From: Gloeobacterales cyanobacterium
GTDB lineage: Bacteria; Cyanobacteriota; Cyanobacteriia; Gloeobacterales; PMM-0068
Reading direction: 5' to 3'
DNA: 64,000 bases
Assembly: GCA_049582005.1 (NCBI GenBank)
Contig: JBAUTB010000222.1
Location: 682 to 64,681, forward strand
Part shown: positions 22,406 through 52,450 of the stretch, piece by piece
Position numbering within the stretch: position 1 is the first letter of the stretch
Layout: each line of letters starts with the position of its first letter
Notes under the pieces: model-generated
What the model saw: only the letters and a program-made list of their open reading frames with translations
Databases searched by the model: none
Told to the model about the DNA's origin: nothing
Program-made: the position numbers and the translations under genes

Positions 22406-22453
22406 TCAGGGCCGTTACACTAGCCAGGTTAAAGCTTAAGTCGCCTATCCATG

Positions 22454-22490
22454 AATACCCCCTAATTTTAAGGGGGTATTTCTTGATTTT
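22454..22490 (+). terminator. Rho-independent terminator after sodB
   Basis: Perfect 10-bp stem AATACCCCCT (22454-22463) / AGGGGGTATT (22471-22480) with a 7-nt loop, followed by the T-rich TCTTGATTTT. Confidence 0.8.
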
Positions 22491-22713
22491 CGATTGCTGC
22501 TCTTTGTGCGACGTTACGTTCCCCTATAATTCCAAGAGTTTCTTACTCGGCCTCTTCACTTAGCGTTCGACTACTCGGTCTGCTTACCTAGCGTGTCACT
22601 ACCGACGACGATCAAGGGCTTCATGCGGTAAAACTATGTAGAGCAGACCTGTTAACCTAGCAAAGCATTAAGGAACTATAAAAAATCAGCGCTAAAGTTT
22701 TATCTCTCCTCTC

Positions 22714-24228
22714 ATGAACTCTTTCTCTCCCCTCCGATCTACTCGTGTATTCCTTCGGGAACAGGTGCTAGATGAACGATTGATTCTCTCTTTGCGGAAT
22801 ATGCTCGGGGAGTCTCTGAGAGATATTGTTCCATTGAATTATGTCGCTCCTACTTTATATTTGGGGCACTTTAACCCTATAGACCCTACCGTACAGGCTA
22901 CCTTAAGCCAAAAACTGAAGAGCCCTCTGGAATGGGTCCTGCTGGATGCGGAGGATTATGCATTTTGGCAAGAATATTGCCGTGAGCACATCAAGGACTT
23001 TGAAGATGCCGCTCCTCTGCGGCCAGCCCCACCATCTAAAGTCATGACCACGGTGGGTGCAGACTTAGATGAACGGCAGATCTCTGAGCAGGTTCGCCAA
23101 CTTATCCTGGATGCTCTGGAGTGCCGAGCTTCTGACATTCACTTTGAACCAATGCCCCAGGGGTTGTTGGTGCGTTTCCGTATAGATGGTCTACTCAAAG
23201 AAGTAGCGTTGATGTCTCCTGCCTTAAGTAAGGTGGTGCTAGCACGGGTAAAAGTTCTGGCAGAGCTAGATATAGCAAACCAGCGAACGCCCCAGGATGG
23301 TCGCTCTACAGAATATTTTGGACAAGTGGAAGTAGACCTACGGGTAAGCACCCTGCCTTGTTTACATGGGGAAAAAGCCGTTATCCGTCTTTTACCAAAA
23401 ACTCAATCTTTCCAAATTGAAGAAGTAGGCTTTTCCTTTGACCAACTGAAGCGATTCCGTTCATGGTTGGGCTATAGCCAGGGGCTGGTCTTGATCACAG
23501 GGCCTACGGGTTCAGGAAAAACCAGTACCCTCTACGCTGGCTTGATGAATGTACTCACGCCCACAAAAAACATCGTTACCATTGAAGATCCGATTGAGTA
23601 TCAACTTTCCTCGGTCAATCAGGTCCAGGTGAATCCGAAGGCTGGTTTGACGTTTGCTTCGGGATTGCGGTCTATCTTGCGTCAAGATCCAGATGTGATC
23701 ATGGTGGGGGAAATCCGAGATTTAGAAACGGCCCAGACGGTCTTTCAAGCTGCAGTGACGGGCCACTTGGTCCTGAGTACGCTGCACACCAATGATGCCC
23801 CGAGCACCATTAATCGTCTGTTGGACATGGGAATTGAACCCTATTTGGTGGCTGCTTCTTTGCTGGGGGTGGTAGCGCAGCGTTTGGTTCGGAAGGTCTG
23901 TCCCCATTGCTGTCAGGAATATGAGCCAAAACCTACGGATATTCGCCGTTTAAATGTCGAAAAGGTCCCTCCCGCTACCCGTTGGCAAAAACCGATGGGT
24001 TGTGATCTGTGCAATCATATGGGCTACCTCGGTCGAGAGGGAATCTTTGAAATGATGCCTGTAGACGGGCCTTTGAGACAGATGATCCGTGACCGTGCCA
24101 GTGAGCAACAAATGCGTGTCCATCTGGAACAAAACTTGGGAGAGCGCTCTCTTAACCAATCAGCGGTACAAAAAGTAATGGAAGGGAAAACTTCTATTGA
24201 AGAAGTTCTCAGGGTGGTAACTATCTGA
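22714..24228 (+). CDS. GspE/PilB-family secretion ATPase (T2SS/T4P assembly-ATPase type)
   Basis: 504 aa. Walker A GPTGSGKTST, Asp box IVTIEDPIEYQL, Walker B DPDVIMVGEIRD, His box LVLSTLHTNDA. The tetracysteine CPHCC...CDLC is typical of GspE/PilB-like rather than PilT-like ATPases. The N-terminal region of about 130 aa resembles T2SSE_N. Confidence 0.88.
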   Translation: MNSFSPLRSTRVFLREQVLDERLILSLRNMLGESLRDIVPLNYVAPTLYLGHFNPIDPTVQATLSQKLKSPLEWVLLDAEDYAFWQEYCREHIKDFEDAAPLRPAPPSKVMTTVGADLDERQISEQVRQLILDALECRASDIHFEPMPQGLLVRFRIDGLLKEVALMSPALSKVVLARVKVLAELDIANQRTPQDGRSTEYFGQVEVDLRVSTLPCLHGEKAVIRLLPKTQSFQIEEVGFSFDQLKRFRSWLGYSQGLVLITGPTGSGKTSTLYAGLMNVLTPTKNIVTIEDPIEYQLSSVNQVQVNPKAGLTFASGLRSILRQDPDVIMVGEIRDLETAQTVFQAAVTGHLVLSTLHTNDAPSTINRLLDMGIEPYLVAASLLGVVAQRLVRKVCPHCCQEYEPKPTDIRRLNVEKVPPATRWQKPMGCDLCNHMGYLGREGIFEMMPVDGPLRQMIRDRASEQQMRVHLEQNLGERSLNQSAVQKVMEGKTSIEEVLRVVTI

Positions 24229-24231
24229 ATC

Positions 24232-25338
24232 ATGACCCAGCCCTTCCCCACAGAAGACCCTAAGCTACCCCTCGCTCCGTGGGAAGAGTCGTCCCTAGGC
24301 GACGATTTTGACGTATCAAAGACTCACGGAGCAGAGGTCTTCTACTTGGGAGACGAGGCCGACGAACAGCCCCCCCATCCTCAACCACCCGACCAAGAAG
24401 TAGAGGCTGGTTTCCCTTGGCAATCCAGCAGTCTATCCAATCAAAGAACAACATCGTCAAAGCCTCTCCCTTGGGAGGTCAAAGATATATCTTCTATATC
24501 TTCTGGGCAATCATATCAGACCCAGCCCCGCCCCCAGGTTCCTCCCGTTAGTCCCTCTCGACCGAGTCCTCCAAAAAATTTGCTGCAGCCCAAAAAATTC
24601 ACCTCTGACATCTGGCAGAATGTTCCTATATCGGGCTATGTTACTGCGGCAGCTGTCTTGGTTTTGGGAATGGGAGTGGTGTGGACAGCCAATGGTCTTT
24701 CCAAGGATTCAACAGTCAATGTGCCGCAAAGTGCCATTGTGGCAAAGAATAGTACCGTCGGAGCGGACGGAGGAACTTCTAGCGCATCCATACCCGTGCG
24801 TCCCCTGCGGTCTCGGGTCGTACCCGGTTCATCCTCCAATGAGGCCTCTAAGCCTGGATATATGCCAGAGGCTACTCCTGCGAGGCCAATGGCTCCGCTC
24901 CTGAATGGAAGCGTAAATTCATCGGATTCCACTTCCTCGGGCGAAACCAGTTCTGAATCTTCAACTGAATCCATGTATCTGTCTCCGCTAGCGGCTAGTT
25001 CTGCAGAGGCCGGAGCAGAGGGTGGGCCCCAAAATCCTTTTGCGCCTGCTTATCCTGCGCCAAAGCCTGCGGAGGAACCAAAACCGACCCTAACACCCCC
25101 TCCTGTAAGGCCTTTACCCTTGCCTCCCCCGCCCAAAGTGCTACCAGCGGTCCTTTCTCTAGAGGGAGTCGCTACGGATGGAAAGACAAAATTAGCGATT
25201 GTGCGGGTTGGGGATCAGCCCCTCACCGCAGAGGTGCAAGTTGGTACAACAATAGAAGGCTGGACGGTCACCGCTATCAAGGACCAGACCGTTACCCTCC
25301 GCAAATATAAACAACAACAGGTGCTCCGGCTGCCATGA
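24232..25338 (+). CDS. Bitopic Pro/Ser-rich protein with a C-terminal GspC/PilP-like (HR) domain
   Basis: 368 aa, starting 3 nt after the ATPase stop. Acidic, Pro-rich N-terminal region of about 130 aa. One TM segment (ISGYVTAAAVLVLGMGVVW). A low-complexity S/P/A linker of about 170 aa. The last ~70 aa (LSLEGVATDGKTKLAIVRVGDQPLTAEVQVGTTIEGWTVTAIKDQTVTLRKYKQQQVLRL) fit the GspC-HR/PilP pattern (L.G......A.I.....Y.VG..I.G..V..I....V.L). Confidence 0.6.
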   Translation: MTQPFPTEDPKLPLAPWEESSLGDDFDVSKTHGAEVFYLGDEADEQPPHPQPPDQEVEAGFPWQSSSLSNQRTTSSKPLPWEVKDISSISSGQSYQTQPRPQVPPVSPSRPSPPKNLLQPKKFTSDIWQNVPISGYVTAAAVLVLGMGVVWTANGLSKDSTVNVPQSAIVAKNSTVGADGGTSSASIPVRPLRSRVVPGSSSNEASKPGYMPEATPARPMAPLLNGSVNSSDSTSSGETSSESSTESMYLSPLAASSAEAGAEGGPQNPFAPAYPAPKPAEEPKPTLTPPPVRPLPLPPPPKVLPAVLSLEGVATDGKTKLAIVRVGDQPLTAEVQVGTTIEGWTVTAIKDQTVTLRKYKQQQVLRLP

Positions 25339-27317
25339 ACAAGAAAATGCTCAGTTCTGCCTTGACTGTTTTAGGGATACTGCTTTCTACTCAGCTTCCC
25401 CTCCTGGCAGCTCCTGTCCTCACTCAATTGAATCCCACCGCTAATGGCTTGGAATTATCCGCCAATGAGTCACTGGGCTATCGCGTCCTCAAGCAAGATG
25501 CCAAACAGGTCGTTGTGCTCTTACCTGGAGCAAAGTTAGGTTCTCTCAGCCCTCAATACACGGCGAATGTAGGTCAGGTCAACCTAGCAGAGAATGCCCA
25601 AGGGGTCCAAATGACCGTGGATTTTGCCAATAATGGATTGGCTTATGTCTTTCGTATGAACAAACAGAATTCTGCGCTTGTGTTGGAGTCGATTAAGCCT
25701 GCTGAAGCGATCGCAAAATCTTTGAATAATCCCTCTCTATCCGTACAGCCCGTCTCTTCCCCATCTTCTAATGCTGGCCCACGGGTCAATCTCAAGGTGC
25801 GAGATGGAGAAGTGCGGGACGCCTTAACCCTACTGAGCCGAGTTTCTAAAACCAGTATCGTCACCAACCAGGAAGTAAAAGGAAAAGTTACGCTGAACTT
25901 AGAAAACACCACCTTTGATGAAGCCCTAAAATCTTTGACGAGCGCTGCAGGCCTCCGCACCGAAAAAGTAGGGAATGTTTTCGTGGTCAGCCAGCCTGCT
26001 TCCCAGCAGCCTAACGCCTCTGGAGGTGGCGGGAATAGCCCTAATCCCTTGCGATCTTTGAATCCTAAAGAATTTCAAGGAGATCCTGGACGCCGATTGG
26101 TTTCGGTTATTGCTAATTCCACGCCTCTGAATGTAGCCCTACAAGAAATGGCTAACCAGGTAGGGGTGGATATTGTCATTAATGGGGAGTTGACAGAACC
26201 CGTGACAGCCCGCTTAGTTTCTAGACCCTTCGAAGATGCCTTAAAGCAACTGTTGCTCGGTACTAACTTTGGTTTCATCCGCGATGGAGATACCTATCGA
26301 GTCGGAGATGCTACCCCTGGTTCACCTGCAGCTCGTAATTTTGACGATGTGCAAGTGATCAAGCTAGCCTATAGCGATGCAAAAGATGTCTTGGCGGCTC
26401 TTCCTCCTGATACCCGTGCTCAAGGGATTAAGGTAGATGCTGCCCGTAATGCCTTGATTGTCTCAGGACCCTCTAATTTCCAGGCAAGTATCAAACGTTT
26501 TGTGCAAACGGTAGACACTCCGATTCAGCAAGTCAGTTTCTCTGTCAAAGCTTTTCAGTTGGACGAGGGGGGCAGTAGGGAATTTGATGTTCTAAAAGGG
26601 GCCGATCCAAGCCTAGGAGCCATAGCTACTGCTAATGCTACAAATCCTATCAGTTTGGCAGGTGCAATTGCGGGAACTAATGTTGCCATGTATAACAACA
26701 TCGCTCTTTCATTAAGCATTATTAATGGACTTATCAATGAGAATAAGGGGAGAGTTTTAACGGATACAAAATTGACCACTATGAGTGGGCAGAAAGCTTC
26801 CATAGATGTGAGTCAAGACATCAATGTACGGATCACGACGCCCATCAATACGGGGGGTACTTCAACAATCAGTAGTCAGTTCCAGACCATTCGTGCAGGT
26901 AATGTGATCGAAATTGAACCTGTGATTCGCGCAGACGGAAAAGTGTTTGCTTCTATATCCGTTGAAGCCTCTGTCCCTGTGAGAAAAACCATTTTGCCCG
27001 ATGTGGCTCCTGATATTAACCGTAGAAAAGTAACGAATAAGTTGATTCTTGAAGATGGACAGACCTTAGAAATTGGTGGTTTGATTCAGGAGACTATTAC
27101 AGAGACCAAACGACGTTTGCCCCTTTTTGGATATTTGCCGCTAGTCGGAGAGTTCTTCAGCGATACGGGAGAAGACAAGACCACTAATCAGCTCTTGGTT
27201 TTTATCACTCCCTACCTCAGCCGGGCTCCTCAAGCTTCCGTCCCCACCCTGGATCCAGCCCCTAAACGGCCTTCTGCGCCTGGTATTTCGCTTCCCTCGC
27301 AATCAGGAGTGCGGTAA
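25335..27317 (+). CDS. Outer-membrane secretin (GspD/PilQ family)
   Basis: 660 aa. The start overlaps the upstream stop (ATGA at 25335-25338). Signal peptide, then an AMIN-like N-terminal domain. Next come two STN/N0-like modules, both fitting ...IV.N.E....VT..L....F.DALK.L, then an N1-like module (VQVIKLAYSDAKDVLAAL...). The C-terminal secretin signature is RRLPLFGYLPLVGEFF...NQLLVFITPYL. Confidence 0.88.
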   Translation: MNKKMLSSALTVLGILLSTQLPLLAAPVLTQLNPTANGLELSANESLGYRVLKQDAKQVVVLLPGAKLGSLSPQYTANVGQVNLAENAQGVQMTVDFANNGLAYVFRMNKQNSALVLESIKPAEAIAKSLNNPSLSVQPVSSPSSNAGPRVNLKVRDGEVRDALTLLSRVSKTSIVTNQEVKGKVTLNLENTTFDEALKSLTSAAGLRTEKVGNVFVVSQPASQQPNASGGGGNSPNPLRSLNPKEFQGDPGRRLVSVIANSTPLNVALQEMANQVGVDIVINGELTEPVTARLVSRPFEDALKQLLLGTNFGFIRDGDTYRVGDATPGSPAARNFDDVQVIKLAYSDAKDVLAALPPDTRAQGIKVDAARNALIVSGPSNFQASIKRFVQTVDTPIQQVSFSVKAFQLDEGGSREFDVLKGADPSLGAIATANATNPISLAGAIAGTNVAMYNNIALSLSIINGLINENKGRVLTDTKLTTMSGQKASIDVSQDINVRITTPINTGGTSTISSQFQTIRAGNVIEIEPVIRADGKVFASISVEASVPVRKTILPDVAPDINRRKVTNKLILEDGQTLEIGGLIQETITETKRRLPLFGYLPLVGEFFSDTGEDKTTNQLLVFITPYLSRAPQASVPTLDPAPKRPSAPGISLPSQSGVR

Positions 27318-27333
27318 CAACCTACGGCTCAAC

Positions 27334-28059
27334 CTAATTAGCCGCCGTACTTGGGGCATTTTCTCCAATATGCTGCTGGATGGCGTAGGCTTGCATCCCC
27401 TGGAGCACCGCAAGCTCTGAAAATGCCTCTGTTAGTTTTGCGTGGGCTTCATCGCTCACGCTTGCTTCGATTCGTTTCATCAGGTCAGTTACCCGTTCTC
27501 CCTGCGCTTGAATCTCCTCTGGGTCAATCCGGCCATCAGCAATAGCCCGTTGCCACGATTCCATACGCTGGAAAAATTGAGCTGAATACACTTCGTTGGT
27601 CTCTTCGTTAAACCAACTGGTAGGCAACTCTACTGGAGTCGAAGGCGTAGGAGCGACTTGTTCCGTCGAAGTACTGCCGGTGGGCAAAGCCGACTCGATG
27701 ACTTTCCAGACTTCCTGATCGAGCTGGTATTGTTCCCACGTACCCCAGGCTGCCGGTAAGACTAGAGGCAAAAAGAGCAACAAGCCAATGCCTGCCACAA
27801 TCAGTTTATCGGCCCAGGCTCCTGCTCCGATCTTGACTTCGAGGGATTGGTCAGCCAGGGGCTTAATTTGGATGGTCAAAGCAGCGGCAAGACCAACGGC
27901 CACGCGCCAAATATCATCTCGGTAGCCTTGAATCACCAAGCTGCCATCCGGCAAACGAAGCAGCTGCGTTTCATATTCATGGCCCACAAACCAAAGCCGC
28001 ATTTTCTCCGCCAGATCTTGAGCCGTCAGCCCTGGGGCGTAGTAAGTTCTTGTTTGCAT
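27334..28059 (-). CDS. Hypothetical protein: fusion of a membrane-anchored N-domain and a helical C-domain (paralogs of the two upstream genes)
   Basis: 241 aa. Residues ~1-125 align without gaps to the 147-aa ORF (WF....ETQ.L..P....IQG..D......GL.AALT......L.V.IGA..W.DK...LF.P...A.G.W.Q..L....W..I...LP). Residues ~148-225 align to the 109-aa ORF (SWF....Y...FQRM.SWQ.AIADG.I.PEEI..Q...V..L...E..VSD.....TE...E.AVLQ.MQA). No family recognised. Confidence 0.7.
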   Translation of the reverse strand: MQTRTYYAPGLTAQDLAEKMRLWFVGHEYETQLLRLPDGSLVIQGYRDDIWRVAVGLAAALTIQIKPLADQSLEVKIGAGAWADKLIVAGIGLLLFLPLVLPAAWGTWEQYQLDQEVWKVIESALPTGSTSTEQVAPTPSTPVELPTSWFNEETNEVYSAQFFQRMESWQRAIADGRIDPEEIQAQGERVTDLMKRIEASVSDEAHAKLTEAFSELAVLQGMQAYAIQQHIGENAPSTAAN

Positions 28060-28070
28060 AGCAATTCTCC

Positions 28071-28514
28071 TCAGGGCGTTAACTTAACAGACTGGAAAGG
28101 TGGGGTAGGAACTTGGACTGCCACCTCGACGGCACCCGGTAGCCGTTTGGAGATGTATGTCCAGAGTTTGTCTTCGAGATTATCCTGCTGCCAAACCCCA
28201 TAGGCGGCGGTAAAAGCGAAGGGAGCGAACAAGAAGACGCCTGCAAAGCCTGCTAAATATTTATCTACCCAACTACTGGCTCCGATGGAAACGGTCAACG
28301 CTCCATCGGCCTGAGTCCCCACGGTGACGGTAAGTGCCGCCGAAAGCCCAAAGAAAAAGCGGATAAGATTGTCTTTGCGCCCTTGAATGATGAAGGTATT
28401 TTCAGGACCGACAAGGGTTTGGGTTTCGAAGTCTTCGGAACGAAACCATGACTCAATGGAAGTGGCCAGATATTGGGGCGAAGTATCTGGAATTTGATAG
28501 GCTTTGACTTTCAT
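28071..28514 (-). CDS. Hypothetical membrane-anchored protein, paralog of the N-domain of 27334-28059
   Basis: 147 aa. One hydrophobic segment (LAGFAGVFLFAPFAFTAAYGVW). An 11-nt gap to the downstream gene and a 9-nt gap to the upstream gene on the same strand. Confidence 0.7.
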   Translation of the reverse strand: MKVKAYQIPDTSPQYLATSIESWFRSEDFETQTLVGPENTFIIQGRKDNLIRFFFGLSAALTVTVGTQADGALTVSIGASSWVDKYLAGFAGVFLFAPFAFTAAYGVWQQDNLEDKLWTYISKRLPGAVEVAVQVPTPPFQSVKLTP

Positions 28515-28523
28515 GATGATTCC

Positions 28524-28814
28524 TTACTGATTTTTCTGCAGGGAACTGGTAACGGCAGAAGCTTGCATCGCCTGTAGTACCGCCATTTCATACAGCGTCT
28601 CGGTGATCATCTGGCGTTCAGCGTCGCTTACAAGAGGCTCTACTTCTTTCAGCAATGCAATCACCTTATGGGCCTGGTCCCGAATTTCTTCAGGGGTGAT
28701 TTTGCCGTCCGCTATTGCCTGCTGCCAAGAAGCCATTCGCTGAAAATACTCAGATAGATATAAAGGTCCTTTTTCTTGGTCAAACCAGCTAATACGCGAT
28801 GATTCCTCTACCAT
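28524..28814 (-). CDS. Hypothetical helical protein, paralog of the C-domain of 27334-28059
   Basis: The track ORF runs to 28853 (109 aa). The internal ATG at 28814 is preceded by GGGAGAAAGAAGAAC and gives MVEESSRISWFDQEKG... (96 aa). The choice of start is uncertain. Confidence 0.65.
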   Translation of the reverse strand: MVEESSRISWFDQEKGPLYLSEYFQRMASWQQAIADGKITPEEIRDQAHKVIALLKEVEPLVSDAERQMITETLYEMAVLQAMQASAVTSSLQKNQ

Positions 28815-29002
28815 GTTCTTCTTTCTCCCTAGGAATATCCGTCGTTTCAACATACTTCAGAAATTTAGCATTGCTTGCCCTTATAAGCCTCTACCTTGAG
28901 GAAGAGCTGAAAGGCATAAGCAGCGTGGAAGAACAGAAGCTACTCTAGCAATAAGGGACTCGGAAAACAAAGTGGCTTCCCAAAAGTAAGGTTAGAAATG
29001 TT

Positions 29003-49782: not shown

Positions 49783-50661
49783 CTAGCTAGTAGAGGAGGA
49801 TTCTTCTAAAGGAGAGGCGACTGCTGGAGCGTCGATTTGGACAGTTTCTATGGAAGCAGAAGTGCTTGACCAGCGTTTAGCCAAACGAGAAAAAGAAGCG
49901 GGATTGCCAGATACATAGAAGTTGGTTTTTCCAGGTTTAGTGCTGTTACTCAATAGGCCTAGGAGTTGAAGTTCTCGATTCACCGCTAAAGCTGTTTCCA
50001 CGGAAGGATCTACTAAGGTGATGTAGTCTGGCAAAAAACTTCTGAATAGGGGTTCGAGGTGGGGGTAATGCGTACAGCCATAGACCAAGGTATCAATTCT
50101 TTCGTTGAGTAGAGGCTGCAAATAGTTGATTGCTATTTTTCTGGCTTGACGGTTGTTAACCTGCCCTGACTCTACCAAGGGAACGAATTCCGGACAGGCT
50201 ACTTCGAAAACTTGTACAGTAGGGTCCAATTCTTTCATAGCACTGGTATAGGCTTGGCTCCGCACAGTGGCCTGAGTAGCGATAACTCCGATCCTACGTC
50301 CTCGCTGGACCGCTGCCTTGGCACCGGGGAGGATTAATCCCACAATGGGGGTTTGAAATTCTTGGCGCACTACTTCCAAGGCCAGAGCACAGCTTGTATT
50401 ACAGGCAGCGACTACCAATTTGACCCCCTGGTGCTCCATCCAGGTCATGGTGTCCCGCATAAATTGCTGTATTTCTTCAGAGGAGCGGTTCCCGTAAGGA
50501 ACTCGAGCGGTATCGCCAAAGTAGGTTTTATTCTCTTTGGGGAGCAACTTTTGGAGCTGGTTTAAAAAGGTTAAACCCCCAACACCACTATCAAAAATAC
50601 CAATAGGTTTAGACACAGGCTCAAGTCCTTTCTTACTTTTGGAAGTATTCATCCAAAGCAC
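49783..50661 (-). CDS. murI: Glutamate racemase
   Basis: 292 aa. IGIFDSGVGGLT, VVACNTS and YGCTHYP (the two catalytic Cys contexts). The start overlaps the upstream amidase stop. Confidence 0.92.
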   Translation of the reverse strand: MLWMNTSKSKKGLEPVSKPIGIFDSGVGGLTFLNQLQKLLPKENKTYFGDTARVPYGNRSSEEIQQFMRDTMTWMEHQGVKLVVAACNTSCALALEVVRQEFQTPIVGLILPGAKAAVQRGRRIGVIATQATVRSQAYTSAMKELDPTVQVFEVACPEFVPLVESGQVNNRQARKIAINYLQPLLNERIDTLVYGCTHYPHLEPLFRSFLPDYITLVDPSVETALAVNRELQLLGLLSNSTKPGKTNFYVSGNPASFSRLAKRWSSTSASIETVQIDAPAVASPLEESSSTS

Positions 50662-52450
50662 GGGCTATGGATTCTGCAGCGAGACGTTGGTGAGGAGCCT
50701 GGGAAACGAGAGCTAGTTCGGCCGGGTTGGTTATGTAGCCCATTTCCACAAGAATAGCAGGCATTGTGGTTTTGCGGATTACGTAGAAGCGGGCAGTACG
50801 TAGACCACGGTCTGGCTGGCCCACCCTGCTAATGAGGTTACGATGGACGATTTTGGCTAACCTGTGGCTATTTTCCCTTATATAGTAAGTTTGGATGCCG
50901 TCGGTTGCCGTATTTTCACTAGCATTATGGTGAATACTAACAAAAATATTCGCATTAACCTGCTCCGCTATATCTACTCTGCCCTGTAGCGGAATAAATC
51001 GATCATCCTCGCGTGTAAAGACTACCCGGTATCCTTTTTGAGATAGAATTTGCCCCAGATATTGGGCTACTTGGAAATTCAACGTCTTTTCATTACGGCC
51101 TCCAGCCATGGCTCCTGGGTCTGTGCCTCCGTGGCCTGGGTCAATGACTACTAGGGGCCCTTCTCCTGTAGGCTGACCAATTTGGCCTTTATTGAACTGG
51201 ATGATGAACTGATTTTTCCTGGATTCCGCTTTTGTCACCTGAATGCCCGGCCCTAAAGCCAAAACAGCGGAGACTTCGCTGCCGGGGTCTTGAAATATCC
51301 GAAGACGGTCTAGAGGCCCTTTAGTGGTCAATTTAGGGCCGCTGAGGGTCTGTGCAGGCAGAGAAATTCCTGGGAATGTTACTTTATAGTTGTTGCCGGT
51401 AAATTCAGCCTTAGCTTGTAAAGGACCATCGCCAACAAAGATTAAACGGTCGCCAATTAAGCGGACGGCGAGCAAGTTACCCGCTCTTTTTTGAATTACG
51501 GCTAATTGGCCCGCAGGAACTAAGCGTACGCCCTTTACGCTGGGATCATAAGCCGTTTCCCAATCAGCCACCTCTTGGTCTATGTCCAACACGATGCGCG
51601 TGATGGGGGGTCGATTCTGGAATTGTCCAAGACGAATTTGTTGGATCCCGAGGCGATTAGCTGGAAAAGATCGCTCTTTCGTCGCAGTGGAGATGATCGT
51701 GTTTGGAAGGTCTACGATCAAACGATCTGGACTATCTACCCGGCGCACCGAAGCATCAGTTGGTCCACTGGTTCGGATAATAAAACCTTGGGCGGTGTTA
51801 TCAATACCCTCAAAGCGGACCATGGCTCTGAGCTCTTGTTTTGTAAGTGATGGAGAAGCTAAGGGTGGAGGGTTAGGATTTGGAACTGGATTAGGATTTG
51901 GAACTGGATTAGGATTTGGAACTGGATTAGGATTTGGAACTGGATTAGGATTTGGAACTGGATTAGGATTTGGAACTAGATTAGGATTTGGAACTGGATT
52001 AGGCGCTTGTGACGGGTCTGTATTCGGAATTCCTTGACTCAATTGAACCTGCCAACGATTGAATCCTCGATTGTCAAGTTCATATTGTTCTGGACGAAGC
52101 TCTTCGGGGACACGCAGCTGGATAACAAGGCGTGCTATCTCTGGGGTAAACTGTGCAGTGCGGATTTCCTCCACAAGGCCCGTTGGGAACTGTTGACTAT
52201 TGGAACGTTCCAAGGTCGCTGCGGGTAAGTCCATAATCAACCGACTCGGTCCCGCTTTCGTGGAGAGAATCGGTATGGTAACGCCCTTGGTTGTGATTTC
52301 TAAAAGTTGTCTATTAGGGTCATAGGACCAGGAGAGCAATCGCGGACGTTCTATGCCTCCAGGTGCAGCCCACACAGGAAATAGAGGATGGCTGCACCCC
52401 CAGAAGAACACTATCAATAGCGTCAATACCCGCTTCAACATGGCCCTCAC
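50633..52450 (-). CDS. amiC: N-acetylmuramoyl-L-alanine amidase (AmiC-type: AMIN domains, Pro/Asn linker, Amidase_3 domain)
   Basis: 605 aa with a signal peptide. Two AMIN-like repeats (..RLIMDLP.. and ..RLIVDLPNT..). A (PNPNPV)n linker. C-terminal VVIDPGHGGTDPGA...SIHHNA...E.GYITN. Confidence 0.9.
   Translation of the reverse strand: MRAMLKRVLTLLIVFFWGCSHPLFPVWAAPGGIERPRLLSWSYDPNRQLLEITTKGVTIPILSTKAGPSRLIMDLPAATLERSNSQQFPTGLVEEIRTAQFTPEIARLVIQLRVPEELRPEQYELDNRGFNRWQVQLSQGIPNTDPSQAPNPVPNPNLVPNPNPVPNPNPVPNPNPVPNPNPVPNPNPVPNPNPPPLASPSLTKQELRAMVRFEGIDNTAQGFIIRTSGPTDASVRRVDSPDRLIVDLPNTIISTATKERSFPANRLGIQQIRLGQFQNRPPITRIVLDIDQEVADWETAYDPSVKGVRLVPAGQLAVIQKRAGNLLAVRLIGDRLIFVGDGPLQAKAEFTGNNYKVTFPGISLPAQTLSGPKLTTKGPLDRLRIFQDPGSEVSAVLALGPGIQVTKAESRKNQFIIQFNKGQIGQPTGEGPLVVIDPGHGGTDPGAMAGGRNEKTLNFQVAQYLGQILSQKGYRVVFTREDDRFIPLQGRVDIAEQVNANIFVSIHHNASENTATDGIQTYYIRENSHRLAKIVHRNLISRVGQPDRGLRTARFYVIRKTTMPAILVEMGYITNPAELALVSQAPHQRLAAESIARALDEYFQK
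51870..52003. repeat. 18-bp tandem repeat (about 7.4 copies) inside amiC, encoding the (VPNPNP)n linker
   Basis: The unit GGATTAGGATTTGGAACT starts at 51870, 51888, 51906, 51924, 51942, 51960 and 51978, plus a partial copy. The five central copies are identical and the outer copies differ by single substitutions. Confidence 0.95.

Follow-up and report, generated by a model that had tools for sequence, protein, structure and literature searches.

The stretch of DNA analysed here (the window) comprises 64,000 nucleotides of contig JBAUTB010000222.1 from a Gloeobacterales cyanobacterium (assembly GCA_049582005.1), and the element in question is a gene, hereafter X, located at positions 24232..25338 of the forward strand (+), which starts with ATG and encodes a bitopic protein of 368 amino acids (aa) of the PilP/GspC class. 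X lies between the gene of a GspE/PilB-family secretion ATPase (22714..24228, +, 504 aa; Pfam T2SSE, 1e-125) and that of a secretin (25335..27317, +, 660 aa; Pfam Secretin, 7e-37, with two STN stretches and Secretin_N). The TGA stop codon of the ATPase gene is followed after 3 nucleotides (nt) by the ATG of X, and the stop codon of X overlaps the start of the secretin gene as ATGA, so that X is translationally coupled on both sides, as had been proposed in the original prediction made from the letters of the sequence. Given this 3-nt gap, the ATGA overlap and a strong terminator-like hairpin at 22453-22481, after sodB, the three genes look like a single transcription unit.

The product of X is 100% identical to an entry deposited at NCBI as 'MAG: hypothetical protein WCA07_14140 [Gloeobacterales cyanobacterium]' (MAG, metagenome-assembled genome). 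The existence of 16 homologs with 55-78% identity and the same start and architecture, together with ratios of non-synonymous to synonymous substitution (dN/dS) that stay below 1 in every region between X and three orthologs and reach their minimum in the C-terminal domain (0.11-0.27), establishes X as a real gene. Two open reading frames overlapping it, at 24620..24904 (+) and 24636..24974 (-), were set aside, since it is the frame of X that is conserved as protein and under purifying selection. Regarding the reach of the searches, a homolog search with a mixed X alignment returned the close clade only, low-complexity words having probably swamped the candidates; a search for related loci with the X alignment yielded no more than 2 loci from genomes and 3 from metagenomes, and the profile of full-length X gave no match among the PDB sequences.

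An AlphaFold2 (AF2) model of X, built on the alignment of the 16 homologs, displays confident structure solely in a transmembrane (TM) helix and in a six-stranded C-terminal beta domain, the remainder of the chain being predicted as disordered. All four parts initially assigned to the protein are therefore present, with the correction that the linker amounts to about 152 aa and not 170, and the C-terminal domain to about 63 aa and not 70. The single TM helix (residues 133-153; 24628..24690, +) is modelled as such by AF2, coincides with the hydropathy maximum (Kyte-Doolittle 1.87) and constitutes the sole hydrophobic segment of X. Two lysines on the N-terminal side of the helix (KK121-122) and the absence of a signal peptide point to an N-in topology. 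Beyond the helix extends a linker (residues 154-305; 24691..25146, +) that would be periplasmic and is predicted to be disordered, with a predicted local distance difference test score (pLDDT) <50 over most of its length; it is composed of 18% Pro, 17% Ser and 11% Ala, includes PPPVRPLPLPPPPK and contains two conserved islands, IPVRPxRSRV (187-196) and PGYxPEATP (208-216). The first island (window positions 24790-24819) is the window-clade form of a basic motif found in the periplasmic linker some 35-50 aa past the TM helix, which reads SRRPRRIRPV in Anthocerotibacter, TRPVRRRAT in Cyanaurora and SRRPLRPRLN in the MAG locus L017. Ahead of a Pro-rich stretch and the beta domain lies GGPQNPFAPAYP (residues 264-275; 25021..25056, +), a G-x-x-[N/D]PF motif in which G265, P269, F270 and P275 are invariant in an 11-sequence alignment of window-clade, Gloeobacter-type and related sequences, GRxxPF being invariant among the X homologs of the other lineages.

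The C-terminal beta domain (residues 306-368; 25147..25335, +) is predicted with six strands over about 63 aa at a pLDDT of ~90. Comparison with the PDB by Foldseek gave as top match the homology region (HR) of GspC in the GspC-GspD complex of enterotoxigenic Escherichia coli (3oss_C), with a template-modelling score of 0.77 and a root-mean-square deviation of 1.8 A over 63 columns. Further matches were PilP of P. aeruginosa, Neisseria and M. xanthus (2y4y, 2lc4, 2ivw and 3jc8_Pa; probability 1.00, template-modelling score on the target 0.35-0.64), the HR of PulC (6hcg_e), GspB and LspC. In agreement with this superposition, NCBIfam returned weak matches below threshold to GspC_delta (NF041515; 24.5 bits, E 2e-5, under the cut-off of 150) and to pilP_fam (TIGR03021; 15.1 bits, E 0.035, under the cut-off of 34.65). 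The HR/PilP fold, originally suspected from the sequence pattern, is thus confirmed at the level of the predicted structure. When a profile of the 107 C-terminal residues of X was used in an exhaustive search, 215 proteins were collected at E <=1e-3, mostly of 140-230 aa and with the domain at the C-terminus; a Pfam scan of 64 of these relatives found T2SSC in 18 and Y4YQ_C in 23, and the X homolog of G. morelensis carries the UniRef name 'GspC N-terminal domain-containing'.

The secretin encoded immediately downstream offers modules of the kind on which such domains dock. Behind its signal peptide it presents an AMIN domain (residues 34-117; 25434-25685) that scores 23.6 bits, over the Pfam cut-off of 20.5, an N0/STN module (~147-220; 25773-25994), an STN-like module (~255-322), N1 (339-399) and the secretin domain proper (466-628). 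The expected N0/STN modules are hence found both by Pfam and by the match of residues 147-218 to the N0 of Neisseria PilQ (4ar0). The closest PDB relatives of the protein are PilQ, and NCBIfam ranks PilQ above GspD, so that on sequence grounds it is a secretin of the PilQ type and not of the GspD type.

The ATPase upstream is made of an N-domain (residues 10-92), a flexible linker (95-117) and the N2 and C-terminal ATPase domains, with a tetracysteine motif, and scores 504 bits with the GspE and 472 bits with the PilB model of NCBIfam, each under cut-off. Its matches to GspE, PilB and PilF in the PDB are limited to residues 119-502, and the first 118 residues found nothing significant by profile in Pfam or among PDB sequences, MshEN/N1E included. 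Nevertheless, AF2 folds this N-domain confidently as a small alpha/beta domain (pLDDT ~80). Foldseek matches the ATPase best to 4pht, a complex of full-length GspE with GspL, and because that alignment extends over 479-485 columns, compared with ~385 for N-truncated ATPases, the N-domain is probably N1E-like, a likeness between models that is suggestive. The N-domain (residues 1-118) is kept at 96-98% coverage only in Gloeobacterales orthologs, coverage in outgroup matches being 75-98% and mostly 76-92%.

The succession ATPase-X-secretin is not a peculiarity of the window. It recurs at 5 more loci of the window clade (L001, L002, L004, L010 and L013) as well as in Anthocerotibacter panamensis (L015), Candidatus Cyanaurora vandensis (L016) and the MAG of L017, with cross-lineage full-length identities of 54-59% for the ATPases and 36-42% for the secretins. 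As four deep lineages of the Gloeobacterales keep X sandwiched in this way, the possibility, raised at the outset, that homologs of X usually sit away from any ATPase or secretin does not hold in most lineages. In sister genomes from the window clade, the ATPase gene is immediately preceded by genes for a small secreted protein and for three divergent prepilin-like proteins. No prepilin-like gene was found in the window, and T2SSF, GspL, GspM and pilM/N/O genes were likewise absent from its 64 kb, the remainder of which is occupied by cyanobacterial housekeeping genes including psaA/psaB, tal, gnd, sodB and dnaG. None of the homologous loci examined encodes a platform protein (PilC/GspF), a prepilin peptidase, PilM/N/O or GspL/M. 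As no examined locus has a PilC/GspF of its own, it is probable that the module relies on a platform and a peptidase whose genes lie elsewhere.

The HR of GspC docks on the N0 domain of GspD, and PilP docks on the N0 domain of PilQ. The fold of its C-terminal domain, the PilQ type of the secretin and the recurring order ATPase-X-secretin make it probable that X is the inner-membrane-anchored, secretin-docking subunit, of the PilP/GspC class, of a type-IV-filament-like module distributed throughout the Gloeobacterales. The core of this module would consist of the GspE-like ATPase, X and the PilQ-type AMIN secretin, accompanied in most genomes by prepilin-like genes. X would insert with its N-terminus inside through its one TM helix, an orientation suggested by the flanking charges, and the TM anchor would stand in for the lipid anchor of classical PilP. 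The tether of ~150 aa, rich in Ser, Pro and Ala and predicted to be disordered, may cross the periplasm and the peptidoglycan, and the beta domain would dock on an N0-type module of the co-translated secretin, a contact for which family knowledge and gene linkage argue. On the other side of the membrane, the disordered tail would very likely present its short conserved PW[E/Q] motifs to some cytoplasmic partner.

Several observations weigh against this assignment as a secretin-docking subunit. X is devoid of the lipobox that is a feature of PilP and of the PDZ or coiled-coil that is a feature of GspC, and it scores far under the cut-offs of the curated PilP and GspC models. Moreover, a secretin with two N0-like modules plus AMIN provides several candidate docking sites for X. 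Finally, in Gloeobacter X is not found beside the orthologous ATPase-secretin pair and instead adjoins a divergent filament cluster equipped with a GspC-like protein of its own.

This Gloeobacter exception deserves closer description. Neither G. kilaueensis nor G. morelensis has X between the orthologous ATPase and secretin genes, which adjoin each other, and the X homolog, of 260-265 aa and with the same architecture, is encoded elsewhere in the genome. As it adjoins a different filament cluster, which secretin is served by X in Gloeobacter is ambiguous. The Gloeobacter X is translationally coupled to the gene of a stand-alone secreted protein of ~205 aa that aligns with the AMIN-bearing N-terminus of the secretin and continues into a Pro-rich tail, this AMIN-like gene overlapping the stop of the X homolog at all four loci (L005 10780-11397; L006 10795-11418; L007 802-1431; L008 9853-10260). 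The AMIN-like protein looks like a split-off or unfused N-terminus of a secretin, and through this coupling X would again be tied to periplasmic modules of the secretin type. In both species there stands beside the X homolog, on the - strand, the divergent cluster of ten genes (L005 294-9820; L006 598-9813), which includes a secretin, a highly divergent ATPase of 618 aa, pilin-like genes and a GspC-like protein of 287-290 aa with a TM helix, a Pro-rich region and a beta domain. This cluster was considered as the home of the orthologous ATPase and secretin and rejected, the matches extending to merely 33% over 186 aa and 25% over 232 aa and the true orthologs lying elsewhere. It is probably the Gloeobacter 'generic type IV filament system', which among cyanobacteria has been reported only for Gloeobacter (PMC7690835).

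Among the alternatives, the one that withstands the evidence best, even if we regard it as rather unlikely, holds that X is the Gloeobacterales ortholog of cyanobacterial PilP (the Synpcc7942_0168 family) and serves a canonical type IVa pilus built from pilMNOQ and pilBTC. In such a scenario the periplasmic segment of X would contact PilN/O, its tail would be regulatory or bind a pilus factor such as PilM, and the adjacency to the ATPase would reflect operon history. In fact, cyanobacterial pilP is encoded apart from pilMNOQ and its product is longer than proteobacterial PilP (PMC12288463), the secretin of the locus is PilQ-like and carries AMIN, and at L008 the pair formed by X and the AMIN-like gene stands alone amid housekeeping genes. 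In the work of Taton et al. 2020, glr3906 is listed as the best G. violaceus match of the predicted S. elongatus PilP Synpcc7942_0168, with 28% identity (PMC7125226 supplement), and in gene number and strand glr3906 agrees with the X locus of Gloeobacter, where a + gene follows ten - genes, which makes glr3906 a candidate match by numbering only. The orthology of X to glr3906 and Synpcc7942_0168 is accordingly a candidate one, drawn from a published table and gene numbering, and four lineages lock X between an ATPase and a secretin whose Gloeobacter locus has no pilM/N/O. The G. violaceus tables place pilD/M/N/Q matches at glr2433-2438 and pilBTC at gll2665-2667 (PMC7125226 supplement). Since the pilQ match, glr2438, adjoins the pilD/M/N matches while the Gloeobacter ATPase-secretin locus has no pilM/N/O, a separate machine is suggested, which speaks against a role of X in the canonical pilus.

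The remaining alternatives concern the cytoplasmic tail (residues 1-132; 24232..24627, +), which is acidic, with a net charge of -8 (18 D+E against 10 K+R), rich in Pro (17%) and Ser (14%) and predicted to be disordered (pLDDT 34-54), with islands of sequence constraint. Three PW[E/Q] motifs are distributed along it. In the first, A15-P-W-E-E19 (24274..24288, +), P16 and W17 are conserved in >=90% of the clade, and the second and third, F61-P-W-Q64 (24412..24423, +) and L79-P-W-E82 (24466..24477, +), are invariant in all 16 clade homologs. In the mixed alignment the first motif aligns with the N-terminal YPWEK of the Gloeobacter homologs and the second with their second [F/Y]PW, and all ten aligned sequences from Anthocerotibacter, Cyanaurora, L017 and the Gloeobacter type carry an invariant [F/Y]PWE close to the N-terminus (10/10). 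The length of the tail goes from ~45 aa in Cyanaurora to 130-175 aa in the window clade, and an internal duplication is present in the tails of two homologs (P0002 and P0003). The dN/dS values fall to 0.10-0.34 at residues 57-85 and to 0.02-0.25 in the juxtamembrane residues 113-132, against 0.4-0.96 in the spacers. With respect to the 149 profile relatives of the C-terminal domain, 101 have their first hydrophobic segment within the 30 N-terminal residues, and PW[E/Q] inside a long N-terminal tail occurs only in the Gloeobacter-type homologs; the tail thus serves as a carrier of short linear motifs that is specific to the lineage. Residues 1-132 found no match in Pfam or the PDB, and the AF2 model contains no GspL- or PilM-like fold in them. 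The INLLP motif of PilN serves PilM, and the KNLLQPKK adjacent to the TM helix of X was considered as a PilN-like counterpart; this reading was rejected because the homologs have KNVIQS, KNVPQP or KSAPPP in its place. From the pattern of conservation, it is very likely that the tail has a cytoplasmic partner.

Whether that partner is the ATPase is the point on which the original prediction went furthest. According to it, X would bridge motor and pore, the tail recruiting the ATPase while the C-terminal domain holds the secretin, and GspL-like and GspC-like roles would merge in one polypeptide. In the form considered here, recruitment would proceed through the PW[E/Q] motifs of the tail and the N1E-like N-domain of the ATPase, X replacing either GspL (with or without GspM) plus GspC or PilM/N/O/P. 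The invariance of PWE in the lineages outside the window clade despite a ~3-fold range in tail length, the three related copies in the window clade and the purifying selection acting on the motif islands are consistent with such recruitment. The same can be said of the confidently folding, Gloeobacterales-only N-domain of the ATPase, which Foldseek aligns with the GspL-binding N1E of 4pht, of the lineage distribution shared by the PWE motif and this N-domain, of the tight coupling of the ATPase and X genes, and of the lack of GspL/M or PilM/N/O genes at any locus. However, the tail is disordered and without a GspL/PilM-like fold, and an AF2 run on a fusion of the ATPase with residues 1-132 of X left the tail at a pLDDT of 23-32 with no induced structure or docking, a weak test given its ATPase-only alignment, its non-multimer model and the lack of predicted aligned error values. 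In addition, ATPase and secretin adjoin without X in G. kilaueensis and G. morelensis, the match of the N-domain to MshEN/N1E is not significant by sequence, and the published tables list pilM and pilN matches in Gloeobacter that could do this job (PMC7125226 supplement, PMC7690421). Recruitment of the ATPase by the tail is consequently improbable on present evidence, the disordered tail, the negative if weak fusion model and the Gloeobacter pairs devoid of X weighing against it, and the merger of GspL-like and GspC-like roles in one polypeptide is an attractive hypothesis that is currently unsupported. Still further from acceptance, and very improbable in our estimation, is its extension to a minimal three-gene trans-envelope machine of the earliest-branching cyanobacteria in which one disordered bitopic protein replaces PilM/N/O/P or GspL/M/C, capturing the N1E-like domain with [F/Y]PWE and the secretin with the HR. 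Equally hard to accept is the opposite view of the long tail as a lineage-specific low-complexity expansion with no specific partner, in which only the TM helix, the linker and the beta domain matter: it would account for the ~3-fold length variation between lineages, the internal duplication in P0002 and P0003, the near-neutral spacers (dN/dS up to 0.96) and the 101 of 149 relatives that have no such tail ahead of their first hydrophobic segment, PW[E/Q] in a long tail being confined to the Gloeobacter type, but it is contradicted by the invariance of PWE outside the window clade and of FPWQ and LPWE within it, and by the low dN/dS of the motif and juxtamembrane islands.

Various additional features accompany the module in one genome or another. 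The secreted accessory gene of the window clade, which encodes a 'WDTTI' protein with a signal peptide (169-216 aa), is preserved in full ahead of the ATPase gene at L004, L010 and L013. In the window only a 3' remnant of it is left (...TIKGFMR*; 22490..22630, +; ~130 nt), next to the sodB terminator hairpin, and this remnant is either the scar of a rearrangement or deletion or an assembly join. A homolog of the 'WDTTI' protein is encoded in G. kilaueensis downstream of a giant pilin gene (27% identity, E 1e-11). Directly behind the secretin gene, the loci L015 (14437-16932), L017 (8670-11123; P0075), L014 (13630-15876) and L018 (13492-15780) encode giant prepilin-like proteins (748-831 aa) whose N-terminal sequence has the form RRGF[ST]L[LI].... 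Those of Anthocerotibacter and L017 (817-831 aa) end in a second HR/PilP-like domain, 40-45% identical to that of X, and the domain of X is closer to this one than to the domain of Anthocerotibacter's own X homolog; the giant protein of G. kilaueensis (L014) has no HR-like domain. In both Gloeobacter species, at L014 (7266-9794, -) and, in G. morelensis, at L018 (7295-9829, -), there is also a protein of 842-844 aa with cNMP-binding, sigma54-activator AAA+ and Fer4_5 domains, which is encoded divergently from the ATPase and is a candidate regulator of the module. Past the secretin gene of the window stand three small genes, all on the - strand (27334-28059, 241 aa; 28071-28514, 147 aa; 28524-28853, 109 aa), none of which has a family match. 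The 241-aa and 147-aa products resemble paralogs by eye, each combining a soluble N-domain with a hydrophobic segment behind it. The three are syntenic behind the secretin in the 4 window-clade loci that reach far enough (L001, L004, L010 and L013) and are missing from the loci of Anthocerotibacter, Cyanaurora and Gloeobacter. The window also encodes an AmiC-type N-acetylmuramoyl-L-alanine amidase (50633-52450, -), which has two AMIN domains, served as internal AMIN reference and is otherwise unrelated to X.

The significance of X as a probable secretin connector derives from the fact that in type IV pili and type II secretion systems the link from the outer-membrane secretin to the platform and motor at the inner membrane normally takes three or four proteins, and that PilP has been elusive in cyanobacteria, where it was predicted only recently. 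The X family would represent a design of secretin connector in the deepest cyanobacterial lineage that is TM-anchored, provided with an unusually long tether and locked in an operon, as part of a secretin module that spans the Gloeobacterales and differs from the pilMNOQ cluster that has been reported in G. violaceus. The three tryptophans of the tail may furthermore offer a mutable handle on the coupling of motor and pore in a stripped-down system.

When X is compared with known systems, the resemblance to PilP of type IVa pili (P. aeruginosa, Neisseria and M. xanthus; 2y4y, 2lc4, 2ivw, 3jc8_P) lies in a disordered linker followed by a C-terminal beta domain of the same predicted fold, in the [N/D]PF segment ahead of that domain and in the position of the gene directly upstream of a PilQ-type secretin, which at the X locus bears AMIN. 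Unlike PilP, X has neither signal peptide nor lipobox, its sequence being free of Cys, its TM helix (133-153) comes after a cytoplasmic tail of 132 aa, and the gene lies outside any pilMNOPQ operon, with pilM/N/O absent from the window and from all homologous loci. With GspC (HR structures 3oss_C, 6hcg_e, 2lnv and 7oio) X would share the bitopic N-in arrangement in the inner membrane, an HR-fold domain and a partner ATPase that is GspE-like in size and layout. In contrast to GspC, the HR of X is at the extreme C-terminus, the chain ending 2 residues past the last strand with no PDZ or coiled-coil after it; ~150 aa of linker separate it from the TM helix, the cytoplasmic tail is long, and no gsp operon surrounds the gene (no gspF, no gspG-M), prepilin-like genes adjoining in sister genomes only and the secretin being PilQ-like with AMIN. 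X differs from GspL in having neither an actin-like cytoplasmic nor a ferredoxin-like periplasmic domain, and from PilN in that its KNLLQP (115-120) is variable among homologs and its periplasmic part is disordered before reaching the HR domain; to GspL and the PilM-PilN pair it compares by analogy only, as a bitopic protein with a short conserved motif at the cytoplasmic N-terminus. The predicted cyanobacterial PilP (Synpcc7942_0168; glr3906) is, like X, long and unlinked from pilMNOQ, and its Gloeobacter entry is probably the X homolog, a correspondence of number and strand only. X departs from it by being operonic with a GspE-like ATPase and a secretin in most Gloeobacterales, an arrangement not described for other cyanobacteria. 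Because of the TM anchor in place of a lipobox, the lack of PDZ or coiled-coil and the scores below cut-off, X is best filed as a new variant and not as a bona fide member of the curated PilP or GspC family, plausibly as the form that the cyanobacterial PilP predicted recently takes in the Gloeobacterales, and it is the conserved three-gene operon of GspE-like ATPase, X and AMIN-PilQ-type secretin, together with the invariant cytoplasmic PWE motif, that are new here.

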